From: a virus
Strand: one strand, 5' to 3'
Virus record (IMG/VR): IMGVR_UViG_3300035429_000044
Span: 1-62,786 of that record
DNA length: 62,786 bases
This document shows positions 1,257 through 36,228 of the stretch, in pieces. The translations under genes were made by a program, and so were the position numbers. Positions within the stretch are counted from its first letter, which is position 1. The number at the start of each line of letters is the position of its first letter. A model generated the notes under the pieces. The model searched no databases and was not told where the DNA came from. It worked only from the letters and a program-made list of their open reading frames with translations.

Positions 1257-1928
1257 ATGCCTACACACAAGTCATACAATCAGCGGGCGCTCATCGCGCT
1301 CGGCACCGCTATCAGCCGCCTGTACGGCGCGCTCTACACCAGCGGCGACGCATACACGCGCGACGACGCCAAACTCATCTCCGCCGCATTGCGCCGCACG
1401 GACCGCGACGAACTGCTCAACGAGGCCATCGCCCACACCGGACGGCAGGACAACGGGCTACGCGAGCTCGAACTGTTCGTCGACGACGAACTGCAGCGGG
1501 ACGGGTTCGATCCGTTCGAGTCCCTCCCGGCCGCCGAACGCCGCCTGACCCCGGCCGAATTCAAATGCCTGCGCACTTCACTGGGATTGACGACGAAATG
1601 GCTCGCCGACCGGTGGGACGTCGCCGAATTCTCCGTCAAACGCTGGGAACGTGCGCGCATGCTGCCCGAGGAATTCAGCGAGGACATGCTCGGGTTGCGC
1701 CAGTGGTTCCTCGATGAGGTCGCCCAGCGCGAGGCGTGCGTGGCGGATTCCATCTCGGTGCCACGCACCGACCGCGACACCGATCTGGGTTTCCCGGCGG
1801 CATGGTGGCAACTGATAGCGTGGCGCGTACATGAGGATACCGGCCAGACGATCCTCTTCTACGACGATTTCACCGAGGACCTCGAACCCGAACCCGATGA
1901 CCTGGAGGACGGTGATGGCGATGAGTAG
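1257..1928 (+). CDS. HTH protein with Aca2/DUF1870-like central domain, extra N-terminal domain and acidic tail
   Basis: 223 aa. The segment LTPAEFKCLRTSLGLTTKWLADRWDVAEFSVKRWERARMLPEEFSEDMLGL matches the pattern I recall for Aca2/YdiL-type HTH proteins (ELxxIRxxLxL..A....VS.RSWxxWE.G....P..V...ML.L). Confidence 0.6.
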   Translation: MPTHKSYNQRALIALGTAISRLYGALYTSGDAYTRDDAKLISAALRRTDRDELLNEAIAHTGRQDNGLRELELFVDDELQRDGFDPFESLPAAERRLTPAEFKCLRTSLGLTTKWLADRWDVAEFSVKRWERARMLPEEFSEDMLGLRQWFLDEVAQREACVADSISVPRTDRDTDLGFPAAWWQLIAWRVHEDTGQTILFYDDFTEDLEPEPDDLEDGDGDE

Positions 1929-2663
1929 GCGCCATGCGAAACCACGCCTGAGCCCTATCTGGATGCCATATTTGCGCGACAAACTCGCCGATCATCTGGA
2001 CCATCCGCCATTGCCGTTCCACCATGTGACGGACTACCAGCGTGAGCTGGCCGGCGCCTGGAGTAATGGCGACGGACTGCGCCACTCGCCCATGTGGTGG
2101 GTCAGCCGTGACATGACCACCCTCGCCGTGCACACCGCGCTGCACGAGGATCCACCCGAAGTGGATCCGCCATCGGCGACGGGTTTCATCCTGTTCGATG
2201 GTGGCCTCGACCTGACCGGAGCACCGGACACGCCACTCGCGCATATCGTCGGCCTACGGTGGGCCGTGGAGACCTCAGCGGACGGAGCGGACCATGTGGG
2301 CATGGAGATGTTCTCCGACGATCCGGGCGTCCGCGAGCTCATGCAATGTCCCCTGCCGCTCGTCCCGATGCCCCGGAGCGTCGCCAATGACGCCGCGTTC
2401 GTTCGGGAGGCGAATGTGTTCGAGCGGGTCCTGCGGGCGGTGTGGGCATTGAGCGCCGAACCGACCGTGTGCACCGTCGACCGGCCGAACCGGCCAGACA
2501 GGCTCGACCCATTGCCGCCGCGCATGGTCGACGACGCCGTGCGTGACGTGCGTATGGCAAAAACCATGAATTGCGCCGACGCCAATGGATCCCCCCATTC
2601 GTCAAGGGGCCCGCCGACAAACCACTGATCGCGAAAGAGACGGTGCGCATATGGCGGCGATGA
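1915..2663 (+). pseudogene. Internally deleted, frame-shifted paralogue of 40058..40930
   Basis: An ATG at 1915 has a GGAGGA RBS and overlaps the upstream stop. In frame 1 it aligns with the island paralogue (e.g. LRAVWALSAEPTVCTVDRPNRPDRL vs LRTMFALWAEPRVCEVGEPRPERL) up to ..DVR at about 2552. The conserved C-terminus AYGKNHELRRRQWIPPFVKGPADKPLIAKETVRIWRR* continues in another frame (2550..2663). About 35 codons, including the HRFIVSGHWR block, are missing. Confidence 0.6.
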
Positions 2664-3502
2664 GCCTGGACGAGGTGATCGCCGCGTACCTGCTGCCATA
2701 CGACGGGCAGACCTACAAGCAATACCGCAGCGCGCTGCGCGCGTGGCTGCGCTGGTGCGACCTGAACGACATCGACCCCCTGCATGCGAGCCGCTCGCAT
2801 ATCGAGGCGTATTGCCAGTGGCTTGGGCGTGCGCACCCGACTGGCACCGTGCGCGACAATGTCGGGGCGGTACGCAGATTCTACCGGTTCCTCACCGAGG
2901 AAGAGGTCATCGCCCGCGATCCGGGAGCCGGTGTGCGCCTGCCCCGCAAATACCGGCGCTCGACCGGTAGCTTCCTCACCGTCGAACAGGCGCGCGCGTT
3001 CCTCGCCGTCGCCCACGGCATGGGGAGGCAGGAATACGCATTATGCGCGCTGCTGCTGCTGGCCGGGCCGCGCATCAGCGAGGCCCTCAGGCTCGACGTC
3101 GAGGATTTCGACCGGGAGACCTCGACCCTGCGCTACCACCGCAAAGGCCACTACAAGCAGACGGTGCGCGCATGCAGCGCGGTCGCGAGCGCACTGCGGG
3201 CACATATCGGCGGACGCCGGCATGGTCCGATGTTCCGCGCCCCGCGTGGCGGCAGGCTGCGAGCGGACGACGCGCGAAACACAGTGCGCCTGATCGGCGC
3301 GCATGTGGGACGGCCGGACATCACGCCGCATTCATTGCGGCGTACATTCTGCACGCTCGCGCTGGACGCTGGCGTGGCGGAGCGTGACATCATGGCCGCC
3401 TGCGGCTGGGGCACGACCGCGATGGTCGCATACTATGACATGGCCAATCGTGCGGTCACCCAACAGGTCGGCGATGGGGTCGCCGGCCTGATCGGCCTAT
3501 GA
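2651..3502 (+). CDS. Small tyrosine recombinase (XerC/D-like, no arm-binding domain)
   Basis: Catalytic motifs are visible: ..LLLAGPRISEALRL.. (Arg I), HSLRRTF (His-x-x-Arg), GWGTTAMVAYYDM (Trp/Tyr). ATGs are present at 2651 and 2660. The 2660 ATG forms an ATGA overlap with the ancestral stop of the upstream paralogue. Confidence 0.85.
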   Translation: MAAMSLDEVIAAYLLPYDGQTYKQYRSALRAWLRWCDLNDIDPLHASRSHIEAYCQWLGRAHPTGTVRDNVGAVRRFYRFLTEEEVIARDPGAGVRLPRKYRRSTGSFLTVEQARAFLAVAHGMGRQEYALCALLLLAGPRISEALRLDVEDFDRETSTLRYHRKGHYKQTVRACSAVASALRAHIGGRRHGPMFRAPRGGRLRADDARNTVRLIGAHVGRPDITPHSLRRTFCTLALDAGVAERDIMAACGWGTTAMVAYYDMANRAVTQQVGDGVAGLIGL

Positions 3503-21919: not shown

Positions 21920-21995
21920 TGTCCATGACCGGACTCGAACCGGCATCGCCCCAGACGTACTCCGGGGCGCGCAACTACCAATTAGCTACATGGAC
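21920..21995 (-). tRNA. tRNA-like element with a non-canonical anticodon arm (possible pseudo-tRNA)
   Basis: Acceptor GTCCATG/CATGGAC, D-arm GCTA-ATTGGTAG-TTGC and T-arm GCCGG-TTCGAGT-CCGGT are canonical. The anticodon arm is an 8-bp stem (CGCCCCGG/CTGGGGCG) with loop AGTACGT, lacks U33, and leaves only 2 nt of variable region. Confidence 0.45.
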
Positions 21996-34216: not shown

Positions 34217-34429
34217 TCAAGGAGCGTCGAACGCGTCCGCGAAAGCGATGATGCCAGCACGGACACGTTCACGCAACCTATCGGTATCTATGACGGCATA
34301 AGCACCAGACCCGGAGTTAATGACCCGCATAGGCGGGGTCACTTCCACACTGCCGAGCGGATTATCACAGTCCTTGGCACAGAAACTGACGGTCATGGTC
34401 GGAAGGGAAGAATCGCAATGATCTACCAT
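34217..34429 (-). CDS. Hypothetical small protein (70 aa)
   Basis: ORF with a GAGGGTGG RBS-like motif. It ends 5 nt before the tRNA and could be spurious. Confidence 0.35.
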   Translation of the reverse strand: MVDHCDSSLPTMTVSFCAKDCDNPLGSVEVTPPMRVINSGSGAYAVIDTDRLRERVRAGIIAFADAFDAP

Positions 34430-34531
34430 GACACACCACCCTCGAAGCCAACAATGGTTAGTGAAGAACCACAGCGTCTAATCAGTGATGTGGTTGAGAG
34501 ATTTTGGCGTGCTATCAGAACGACGCCATAA

Positions 34532-34546
34532 GATACCATAGGTATC
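34532..34546. promoter_or_regulatory. Perfect palindrome gatacc-ata-ggtatc
   Basis: Read directly from the sequence, in the non-coding region upstream of the late/packaging genes. Confidence 0.4.
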
Positions 34547-34570
34547 ATACCACACTTTTTGTTGCAGTGT

Positions 34571-34618
34571 GCGTTTCAACTAGCGTTTCAAAGAGCGTTT
34601 CACTTTGCGTTTCAACCT
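34571..34618. repeat. Four phased 12-bp direct repeats (GCGTTTCA + 4 nt)
   Basis: Copies start at 34571, 34583, 34595 and 34607: gcgtttcaacta / gcgtttcaaaga / gcgtttcacttt / gcgtttcaacct. Confidence 0.9.
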
Positions 34619-34722
34619 CAACCCTACTGCCGATTGGGATTCGAGAAAAGTGTTACGCCGTTTCCAAATAGTCTCAGAGCGCATTCACAGTCAGAACCAG
34701 AACCCCAAGCGGCCATTTCTAT

Positions 34723-34728
34723 ATTATA
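34723..34728 (-). promoter_or_regulatory. Consensus -10 hexamer TATAAT on the minus strand (candidate late/tRNA promoter)
   Basis: The plus strand reads attata. No convincing -35 is present. It lies 22 nt from the R/Y tract. Confidence 0.3.
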
Positions 34729-34749
34729 CGGGGTACCCTCCCCTGCCCC

Positions 34750-34875
34750 TATGCGTACGCGCACATGCGTACGCGCACATGCGTACGCGTACACGCGCAC
34801 ACGCGCACACGCGTACACACGCGTACACACGCGCGCACACGCGTACACACGCGCACACGCGCACACGCGTACGCG
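34750..34875. repeat. 126-bp perfect alternating pyrimidine/purine tract built from ACGCG(C/T)AC-type units
   Basis: Counted base by base. The alternation is unbroken from t34750 to g34875, followed by a further 14 nt after one break. Confidence 0.95.
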
Positions 34876-34952
34876 ACACGCGCGCACACCGCCTGATATG
34901 ACTGCCCGCGGGCCTGATATGTGCCCCGATATGCGTTGCGCGACACGCCGAT

Positions 34953-35017
34953 AAACACTAGTGTTTCCAACGGTTTTACCTAACCAACTTGCTAACGTTT
35001 TGGTTAGCGTGTATAGT
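34953..35017 (+). promoter_or_regulatory. Strong sigma70-type promoter with flanking/overlapping inverted repeats for the + strand island
   Basis: -35 TTGCTA (34989..34994), a 17-nt spacer and -10 TATAGT (35012..35017). A 14-bp palindrome aaacactagtgttt lies at 34953..34966. The inverted repeat ctaaccaa/ttggttag (34980..34987 / 35000..35007) brackets the -35. Confidence 0.6.
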
Positions 35018-35024
35018 CATAACC

Positions 35025-35322
35025 ATCAACCAAACAAACCACCGAGAAAGGAACCGAGATGAAACGGATACAGACCACCTGAAGCCACTCGCGAGGGTTA
35101 ACCCGTAACCCCCGAGCCGGAGCCGAGAGGCAAGCACCAGCGGGCAGCGTAGAGTGACGTTGCGGCAGTGACCACTGGAATAGCAGCCACGGCAACCGGC
35201 CGAGACATAACCGGACCCCCTCAAGCTCACAAGATACAGAGCGCGGGACAACTGAAGAGTGTTGAATGTACATACAGCCAACTCCGCTAGTACAATCGTA
35301 AGCACACTGGAAAGGTGCAAAC
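35025..35322 (+). ncRNA. ~300-nt T-poor untranslated leader / candidate structured RNA
   Basis: There is no plausible ORF on either strand. I counted 15 T in the 180 nt 35041..35220. The motif CCGAG occurs five times, and there is a self-complementary gggttaaccc. Confidence 0.35.
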
Positions 35323-35517
35323 ATGGGACTAGCAGAGTTGCGAAAAAGCAAGAACCTGACTCAGAGAGAGTTAGCGGAACGTGCGGGCATATCGAACGTC
35401 ACAATCGCTAATTACGAGCGCGGCGATAGAGATACCGGCAATATGACGCTACGCAATGCGATACGCATTGCGGACGCTCTTAAGGTTAGGGACTTGCGAA
35501 AACTGTTGGACGATTAA
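35323..35517 (+). CDS. XRE/Cro-type HTH regulator (64 aa)
   Basis: LRKSKNLTQRELAERAGISNVTIANYERG is a classic HTH_3 pattern. Confidence 0.85.
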   Translation: MGLAELRKSKNLTQRELAERAGISNVTIANYERGDRDTGNMTLRNAIRIADALKVRDLRKLLDD

Positions 35518-35528
35518 CAGTCGTCCTG

Positions 35529-35619
35529 GCGCTAGTGGGTTTAGCCCTACCGGCTCGTAACCGGACTAGCGCACGGCTAATAAAAGGATTCCCCCGGGAA
35601 GGGGCAACTTCCCGGGGGA
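35529..35619 (+). terminator. Two strong stem-loops after the HTH gene (attenuator/terminator or processing site)
   Basis: The first has an outer stem gcgctagt/actagcgc with an inner ccgg..ccgg. The second is a 12-bp stem tcccccgggaag-gggcaa-cttcccggggga. No clear U-run follows. Confidence 0.35.
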
Positions 35620-35700
35620 TAAAGCCAAAAATACTAACCGTTTTCGGCTCTCTGATTGTATCACATGGGGGCCGATACAAGCTAATCAGAGGTGATTACC

Positions 35701-36117
35701 ATGCGTAACCTGACTATTTCCATCAACATCGAGTACAAGCGTAACCGCACGTGGGGCTGGAATCCCACGGCTACGGTTACTGCGGTGCTGGACGGCGTGA
35801 GGACCGACACGACCACTGGCAAGGCGAGCGGCTGGGGTTATGACAAACTCAGCGCCGCTGTATGCCGCGCGTTCAGCGAGAACCCACTACTTCAGACGCT
35901 GCTCATGTGGGACGGTTGGCAGACCGACACAGAGGCGTACGGTCCAGCTGTGGTGCGTGAGCATGAATGGTCGTTCGGTGGCATGGGTATGAGCGCTCTG
36001 CTCAGACATCTGCGCGCGAACGGCTGCCATGTCACTGAAACGCTGGACAAGCAATGCGATCCCGTAGCGTACACGGCTACGCGCGACATGCCGGCGTCGT
36101 TTGTTGCGCTTGTCTGA
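35701..36117 (+). CDS. Hypothetical protein (138 aa)
   Basis: An ATG at 35701 has an AGAGGTG RBS (the track start at 35692 is a GTG). Confidence 0.65.
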   Translation: MRNLTISINIEYKRNRTWGWNPTATVTAVLDGVRTDTTTGKASGWGYDKLSAAVCRAFSENPLLQTLLMWDGWQTDTEAYGPAVVREHEWSFGGMGMSALLRHLRANGCHVTETLDKQCDPVAYTATRDMPASFVALV

Positions 36118-36228
36118 CCACTTCACCAGGGCGGCGCTAGTCGTCGCCCTTCTCGCCCATATCGGGCTTCTTCAAACCAACAATCTTGCCGCAATGTTGC
36201 GGCCGCTCATAGAAGGAACTGACCTTAA

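Follow-up and report, generated by a model that had tools for sequence, protein, structure and literature searches.

Separate structured RNA elements in the probable control region of the only rightward operon of a Bifidobacterium phage

In Salmonella phage P22, the immI region is ordered Pant - arc - sar RNA - ant; lambda has an antisense RNA of comparable type, oop. In Salmonella, mgtL and mgtP in the leaders of mgtA and mgtCBR are proline-codon leader-peptide attenuators, and the PPP motif is known to stall ribosomes in an EF-P-dependent manner. To our knowledge, almost nothing is known of gene control in the phages of Bifidobacterium, which shape key gut bacteria. Here we analyse positions 35025-35700 of the virus record IMGVR_UViG_3300035429_000044, which is complete, 62,786 bp in length and features terminal repeats; the whole record is referred to as the window. 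It belongs to a temperate Bifidobacterium phage from the mouse gut. The region comprises a long leader, the gene of a 64-aa helix-turn-helix (HTH) regulator and a spacer of 183 nt in front of the next gene, and opens the sole rightward operon (35.3-40.9 kb) of a genome in which almost all genes are carried by the minus strand. On balance, the region is probably the control region of this operon, made up of several separate cis-acting structured RNA elements. These appear to be new RNA motifs of a familiar regulatory kind and not one giant ornate RNA.

The locus shares with P22 immI and lambda oop a small repressor gene at the head of an accessory operon, followed by an intercistronic region in which a candidate opposite-strand promoter and a terminator hairpin would delimit an antisense RNA of ~70 nt before the next ribosome site. 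It differs from both in that the antisense promoter is an extended -10 motif recognised by eye and in that the predicted RNA stays ~30 nt short of the ribosome site. Unlike the P22 repressor, the regulator is of the XRE type and not ribbon-helix-helix, and no sequence similarity was found. As with mgtL and mgtP, a short and strongly initiated open reading frame (ORF) opens a long structured leader, and relatives encode two PPP runs; however, the mini-ORF of the window contains no proline, and 7 of 39 leaders of a sister group have no ORF at all. A small HTH regulator in an operon with a strong promoter, small and rapidly changing genes and a link to CRISPR loci is reminiscent of acr-aca loci. 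Here, however, the regulator gene is the first and not the last of the operon, no known Acr or Aca protein was matched, and the CRISPR link consists of fragments inside arrays, which is not evidence of inhibition.

The spacer invites a further comparison. As in c4 of P1/P7 and CI of P4, a tRNA-like fold is part of a regulatory phage transcript, with a promoter that looks constitutive on one side and accessory genes on the other. The window element, however, follows the regulator gene instead of lying in the leader, and its host is an actinobacterium. Like known RNase P substrates (operon mRNAs, the tRNA-like domain of tmRNA, MALAT1 mascRNA), it has a stem of 7-8 bp on a hairpin of 4-5 bp, which gives a helix of ~12 bp, and a stable hairpin stands immediately 5' of the predicted cut. 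Unlike these tRNA-like substrates, it has a loop with only 4 of 7 T-loop positions and lacks a D arm, an anticodon arm and an encoded CCA. Both operon mRNAs and regulatory RNAs of phages are processed by RNase P (PMC4919922, citing Li and Altman 2003 and Hartmann et al. 1995).

Relatives of the region were gathered by protein, pattern and model searches, and a search with the regulator-protein alignment retrieved 184 relatives from IMG/VR. In the following, W stands for the window sequence and L-numbers for related loci. W, L003 and L026 form the window lineage, and L004/L023 is a prophage of Bifidobacterium choerinum with 70% identity to the window. A first-pass annotation of the window sequence had proposed a single structured RNA of ~470 nt around the regulator gene, with the proviso that homologues should show conservation and covariation. 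They do so for the leader hairpin, the tRNA-like element and the leader of the sister group. Conserved, covarying hairpins are thus found on both sides of the gene, but as separate elements and not as one RNA. Judged from the aligned sequences, RNA structure on the plus strand is under selection, since the covariation is accompanied by strand-specific wobble pairs.

The irregular leader hairpin (coordinates of all features are given in Table 1) is 100% paired in W, L003, L026 and L004, with 5 compensatory pairs and one change from G-U to A-U. Slid controls reached 19-54% paired positions and no compensatory pairs. A covariance model of the hairpin found no true match beyond these relatives in 151 Bifidobacterium genomes and the other loci; its matches in L074-L076 lie inside host coding genes and were rejected as chance. 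Other hairpins occupy the same place in L033/L082, L020, L025, L028 and L072.

A different leader was found at the equivalent place in ~60 phages of the sister group. The 39 distinct sister leaders fit a two-domain structure of 34 pairs, of which 99.1% are paired, with 11 compensatory pairs and many swaps between G-U, A-U and G-C that are readable on the plus strand only. None of 500 shuffles was as good, and slid controls were 31-55% paired. A peptide of 14-15 codons with two PPP runs is encoded by 31 of the 39 leaders. A structured leader is therefore a family trait. No Rfam match was obtained for the sister-group locus. The sister leader (e.g. L086:2206-2503) appears to be a promising candidate for a new RNA family and is much better supported than the window hairpin. 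The window leader itself reads as a diverged variant, in which the mini-ORF has lost 2 nt and the proline frame.

The spacer was compared in 13 copies from nine loci at first and in 15 copies later. The stretch 35500-35705 folds far better than its shuffles (z -4.59, 0 of 200 as good), which bears out the earlier description of a hairpin-rich spacer with strong stem-loops after the HTH gene. The first of its structures, the stop-codon hairpin, has two fully compensating stems, which track the C-terminal codon versions DD-stop and EP-stop among the 13 copies. The sister group carries an 8-bp equivalent, followed at the same places by a hairpin with variable stem and conserved loop and by a strong hairpin.

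The second structure is the tRNA-like element. Among its 14 distinct copies, 91.5% of the cells of 16 pairs are paired and 5 pairs are compensatory; the values exceed those of 500 shuffles on every measure, and the wobbles are G-U on the plus strand throughout. Hairpin B has a conserved UCRUA loop on four different stem sequences and stacks onto the outer stem through the latter's 3' strand. When run over the 151 genomes, the element model also matched one host gene per genome in ~20 genomes, which in the five loci checked is tRNA-Arg(ACG), with 25-28 bits and an identity of ~70%. In the alignment to tRNA-Arg(ACG), the acceptor stem is matched by the outer stem, the T-arm by hairpin B, and the D and anticodon arms form an insertion. 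The element has the stacked arrangement of an acceptor/T-arm minihelix, with the 4-5-bp hairpin contiguous with the 3' strand of the 7-8-bp stem. A four-arm cloverleaf with an anticodon arm was not found, the element being an outer stem with two hairpins only. As read from these features, it is an acceptor/T-arm minihelix, the part of a tRNA recognised by RNase P, and not a tRNA. Since a stable hairpin directly precedes it, it fits a processing site.

Two other identities were rejected for this element. An attP site or a deleted tRNA pseudogene does not agree with the prophages L003 and L004, which are contiguous across it, with the covariation of both stem strands or with the identity of ~70% to tRNA-Arg. 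Hairpin B is not an anticodon loop, as the model aligns it to the T-arm and its loop has 6 nt in L072. The Bifidobacterium castoris genome G003 contains six copies of the element at five loci (C4, C12, C17, C18, C21), including a tandem pair of modules of regulator and element (L024) and remnants flanked by host genes (L036).

Downstream of the element, the perfect 12-bp stem noticed in the first pass was recovered at 35590-35619. No U-run follows it on the plus strand. Its stems covary among relatives and the type of hexaloop is kept. The hairpin was also considered as a mimic of a CRISPR repeat, but a repeat-core scan of the window gave 8 matches versus 3.6 expected, which is at chance level. 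On the minus strand, the hairpin and its T-run could end a candidate antisense RNA with a predicted start near 35648. A TGn + TAnnnT motif was seen by eye at the same place of the minus strand in five divergent lineages (W, L020/L025, L072, the sister group and L140). L004, L025 and the sister group have a weak T-run on the minus side, and the predicted RNA (35580-35648) is not complementary to the window ribosome site (35688-35694). In L033, the predicted antisense start would overlap the ribosome site. That such an RNA of ~70 nt adds to the control of the gene behind the spacer is a possibility which we put forward tentatively, from motif positions. The loop of hairpin H4, which holds the antisense -10 motif, varies from 11 to 18 nt, and its stems are wholly different between lineages yet complementary. 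In the minimum-energy fold analysis, the next gene's ribosome site can pair alternatively with 35650-35657.

Table 1 Features of the region around the regulator gene (window coordinates)
Feature	Position	Strand	Remarks
Promoter P1	34989-35017	+	-35 at 34989-34994, 17-nt spacer, -10 at 35012-35017 after TG
Leader RNA, ~300 nt, 11% T	35024-35322	+	A/C-rich flanks around central hairpin
Mini-ORF, 7 codons (MKRIQTT)	35059-35082	+	ribosome site 35047-35053
Irregular leader hairpin, 60 nt	35129-35188	+	18 pairs, three helices; loops and 3' internal loop largely conserved
Conserved 15-nt box	35245-35259	+	W-type, L004, L028, L033/L082, L020 (weaker), L025, L072, 39/39 sister leaders
Promoter-like site P2	35267-35296	+	9/12 consensus matches, just 5' of regulator gene
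64-aa XRE/Cro/C-protein-like HTH regulator	35323-35517	+	Pfam HTH_3, E 1.5e-14
Stop-codon hairpin	35508-35526	+	regulator stop codon in loop
tRNA-like element, 44 nt	35529-35572	+	8-bp acceptor-like outer stem, hairpin A, T-arm-like hairpin B
Perfect 12-bp terminator-type hairpin	35590-35601 / 35608-35619		T-run on minus side 35580-35589
Candidate antisense RNA, ~70 nt	35580-35663	-	extended -10 35663-35655, predicted start ~35648, end at 12-bp hairpin and T-run
Hairpin H4	35645-35674	+	in minimum-energy fold; loop holds antisense -10
Ribosome-site hairpin	35683-35698	+	next gene's ribosome site in loop; start codon 35701

The motifs were not found in existing collections. With Rfam 15, whose families include the large ornate RNAs GOLLD, ROOL, HEARO, raiA and OLE, the whole window yielded 3 tRNA matches only at gathering thresholds, and a permissive scan (E <= 10, both strands) of 34500-36000 gave nothing credible in 35024-35700, in line with the earlier remark that no known riboswitch or ribozyme could be matched. 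BLAST of 34400-36200 against 50,697 GenBank phages gave no match. Elsewhere in the window, 21920-21995 on the minus strand reached 35 bits with the Rfam tRNA model (cut-off 29), while ARAGORN called no tRNA there.

The transcription start predicted in the first pass near 35025 is matched by a near-consensus promoter at 34989-35017, P1, which shows 9 of 12 matches in the consensus scan and a predicted start near 35024. P1 and an upstream block (34943-34953) are conserved in more than 60 relatives. The distance from the conserved block to the regulator start is 355-470 nt in ~60 loci, mostly 376-391, and 380 nt in the window. Only three features are common to every lineage, namely P1 with its upstream block, the 15-nt box and a -10-like hexamer before the regulator. 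The box is the sole leader motif shared in this way; it is unpaired in the consensus folds and its distance to both promoters is variable. A scan of IMG/VR with the box motif gave two chance matches, both inside unrelated coding genes. The hexamer is the -10 of P2; it is kept throughout the family, and in L024 no other upstream element remains.

Several compositional peculiarities of the leader had been highlighted before. The count of 15 T in 35041-35220 is correct and among the lowest of all 180-nt windows on the plus strand (minimum 14 at 35027). It is not unique in the sense of the transcript, however: 471 windows have at most 15 A on the plus strand, many of them within minus-strand genes, whose sense stretches are therefore equally U-poor. 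The pentamer CCGAG does recur five times (35042, 35054, 35112, 35123, 35200), but 15% of shuffles reach five copies. The palindrome gggttaaccc is present at 35095-35104; neither it nor CCGAG is kept in the B. choerinum relative. The flanks of the leader are A/C-rich, with C exceeding G, and untranslated.

The leader had been described as free of credible ORFs. It opens with a 7-codon ORF behind a canonical ribosome site, whereas no other conserved ORF was found on either strand. The two minus-strand ORFs (34976-35320 and 35004-35351), regarded as nonsense in the first pass, are not open in relatives; such long frames arise because the minus strand is A-poor and has few stop codons. Translation of the leader as one protein by readthrough was rejected: the 2 in-frame stops of the window are both TGA, but the corresponding frame of L004 is interrupted by 5 stops of mixed type. 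The type of ribosome site in front of the mini-ORF also precedes ordinary Bifidobacterium genes; the DNA matches L029 and L030 are ordinary host 5' untranslated regions and are informative for this typicality only. Relatives have 11-41 codons at the place of the mini-ORF. The window mini-ORF is 2 nt shorter than that of L004, which changes the frame and removes the proline frame. Compared to a leader-peptide attenuator, the window thus has the short 5' ORF with a functional-looking ribosome site, whereas regulatory codons such as a proline run and translation-coupled alternative pairings were not identified in it.

Assembled contigs from RNA libraries of four studies cover 35040-35387, one of them with 100% identity over 194 nt. 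The contigs of two studies have 35040 as their first position and show no loose ends there, which is a weak hint of a start behind P1. In one study, two contigs share an end at 35233, although contig ends cannot show RNA ends. Leader-only contigs are deeper than downstream contigs, but depth cannot show abundance. No contig was obtained over 34462-35028 or most of 35536-35646, and such gaps cannot show silence.

Based on these observations, we propose the following course of events. P1 would make a U-poor leader of ~300 nt, which would be translated for a few codons and then fold into its lineage-specific hairpin. The XRE regulator would follow, and after it the stop-codon hairpin, the tRNA-like minihelix, the 12-bp hairpin and the ribosome-site hairpins. 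With its strongly initiated short ORF, untranslated A/C-rich flanks and a hairpin accessible to proteins or ribosomes, the leader has features of attenuation. It may act as an attenuator that sets the share of P1 transcription or translation reaching the regulator and the cargo gene behind the spacer. RNase P or a similar enzyme might cut at the tRNA-like element, leaving a regulator mRNA with a protective 3' hairpin and uncoupling the cargo mRNA from it, while the short antisense RNA might add further control of the cargo.

Several points weigh against this proposal. Assembled RNA-library contigs cannot prove transcription, strand, ends or amounts. The whole leader is no more stable than its shuffles (z -1.61, 15 of 200 as good), and the window leader hairpin is backed by two independent lineages only. 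The long leader is absent in the relatives L036 and L024 and is therefore dispensable for the regulator itself; the candidate promoter P2 may moreover uncouple regulator expression from the leader. As the mini-ORF of the window lacks the proline run of its relatives, a stalling mechanism may be inapplicable here. The likeness to a tRNA goes back to one weak model match of 25-28 bits, the element at 35529-35572 was called neither by the Rfam tRNA model (RF00005) nor by ARAGORN, and the sister group has no tRNA-like element.

Alternatively, the structured pieces could be precursors of trans-acting small RNAs that confer RNA-based immunity, as c4 of P1/P7 and CI of P4 do. In those phages, RNase P excises a small RNA from the transcript of its own operon, and this RNA then silences the transcript by pairing with sites in it. 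The RNA in question would extend from 35529 to ~35620 or derive from the leader hairpin. Such a role would agree with a tRNA-like fold directly upstream of a stable hairpin, with hairpin modules that are lineage-specific, as expected of immunity specificities, and with the c4 precursor as a known substrate of RNase P (Hartmann 1995, as cited in PMC4919922). A conserved leader motif at 35100-35112 is also complementary to hairpin A over 5-8 nt, by eye, in W, L004, L033 and L028. This complementarity is short, was noticed post hoc, does not covary and is absent in L020 and L025, which bear the element, and the sister group does without the element altogether. We therefore regard small-RNA precursors as unlikely.

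The gene content of the locus bears on another explanation. The HTH gene noted in the first pass was verified by its HTH_3 match. PHROGs labels the 64-aa protein as a transcriptional regulator, and the nearest solved structures are controller C proteins of restriction-modification systems. Directly 3' of the conserved spacer, the protein encoded in the cargo slot (35701-36117 in the window) changes with almost every relative; the slots compared, which include those of L003, L004, L020, L025 and L033, code for six unrelated proteins with lengths of 52-269 aa. The point of exchange is the start codon, and the whole intergenic region is kept in L004 despite the different gene behind it. Searches of Pfam, PHROGs and PDB with the cargo proteins gave no match, and the 138-aa downstream protein has no relatives in IMG/VR. 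A conserved spacer in front of swapped genes is consistent with a slot whose accessory or anti-defence cargo is under regulation.

It could be argued that the RNA features of such a locus have no special role. The leader would then represent what is left of a small gene, or a scar of recombination between duplicated promoter and ribosome-site modules, and the spacer a terminator with operators of the HTH protein in an acr-aca-like or moron locus. Decay is suggested by the mini-ORF, complete in L004, L082 and L025 but cut short in the window and L033, and recombination by the ribosome sites of mini-ORF and regulator, which are interchangeable among relatives; L036 resembles a deletion between them. 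The cargo is hypervariable and unannotatable, the module occurs within CRISPR arrays, and inverted repeats can serve as protein operators. A functionless scar is contradicted by the covariation, however, since compensatory changes preserve 18 pairs in the window lineage and 34 pairs in the sister group. The wobbles are G-U on the plus strand only and would be mismatches in DNA operators, loop lengths of 11-18 nt do not suit a fixed protein operator, and no known anti-CRISPR protein was matched. An absence of any special role is thus improbable.

The surroundings of the region raise the question whether its inverted repeats act as DNA. To the left lie two tRNA genes, phased repeats and a purine-pyrimidine tract. 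The four phased 12-nt repeats at 34571-34616 are conserved in relatives with a slightly altered unit and are likely binding sites for terminase or late control beside cos. The alternating purine-pyrimidine repeat tract at 34750-34889 is present in all relatives, with a different length and unit in each; in L028, it directly adjoins a CRISPR repeat. In Bifidobacterium prophages, cos lies in this non-coding region (PMC6109161), from which we infer that the rightward operon begins at one end of the packaged DNA. The window phage was also found in mouse-gut metagenomes of several studies, and its nearest relatives are prophages in B. choerinum, B. castoris and Bifidobacterium cuniculi.

Near the genome end, the inverted repeats could therefore be considered as accessory packaging signals of cos, or as signals for replication or single-strand initiation, as the region lies 100-900 nt from the presumed cos/terminase repeats and the purine-pyrimidine tract. 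This possibility is highly unlikely. It is contradicted by the strand-specific G-U pairing and by copies far from any cos: the regulator always travels with the 3' element, even in fragments and tandem copies (L024, L036, L040). Moreover, RNA-library contigs cover the region. A single large ornate RNA of the GOLLD, ROOL or HEARO type, which would embed the small gene in its 470 nt and had been brought into play in the first pass on account of nearby tRNA genes and long non-coding stretches, can be practically dismissed because of the modularity of the region (separable elements, lineages with non-homologous modules, P2 between leader and gene, a short and strongly initiated ORF at the head of the leader, a leader z of -1.6 and no conserved long-range pairs between leader and spacer) and because Rfam, searched with both strands up to E <= 10, gave no match.

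Pieces of the module and its neighbourhood were also found in CRISPR arrays of two host species. A 92-repeat type I-E array of B. cuniculi (L032 12203-12599, G001:C13) holds one unit of ~397 nt, which starts in the last 18 nt of a regulator gene of the family and takes in the tRNA-like element and the hairpin as well as a cargo gene of 52 aa. A type I-E array of B. castoris (L159, G003:C17) has a unit of ~625 nt (868-1492) that starts mid-leader and reaches into the cargo gene; after it comes a unit of ~1.9 kb (1522-3398, ~1880 nt) with other phage-like genes. In B. castoris L028/L031 (G003:C18), a mini-array of two repeats directly abuts a third copy of the module. The array units replace spacers of 33 nt, and their edges lie at arbitrary points of the phage sequence. 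They could be 'giant spacers' from aberrant acquisition or products of recombination between spacer and target.

A more speculative thought, to which we give little credence, is that the tRNA-like element and the leader may be parts of a device by which Bifidobacterium phages achieve RNA-based immunity or counter-defence. It may work through a small RNA released by RNase P that controls the cargo as c4 and CI do, or as a decoy for a tRNA-directed host nuclease. Such a device would explain the presence of 0.4-1.9-kb pieces of the module or of neighbouring phage DNA in three arrays of two species, because the host meets exactly this first-entering module.

Taken together, the region yields at least three motifs that are held by no database, namely the leader hairpin, the sister leader with its polyproline mini-ORF and the tRNA-like element after the regulator gene. 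All of them are located at a recombination hot spot where cargo genes without assigned function are swapped, and they mark where to seek anti-defence genes. The giant phage-derived array units raise a testable question on recombination between arrays and phages. Should the tRNA-like element prove to be a processing signal, a bacterial phage would provide a clear instance of mRNA punctuation in the style of tRNAs.

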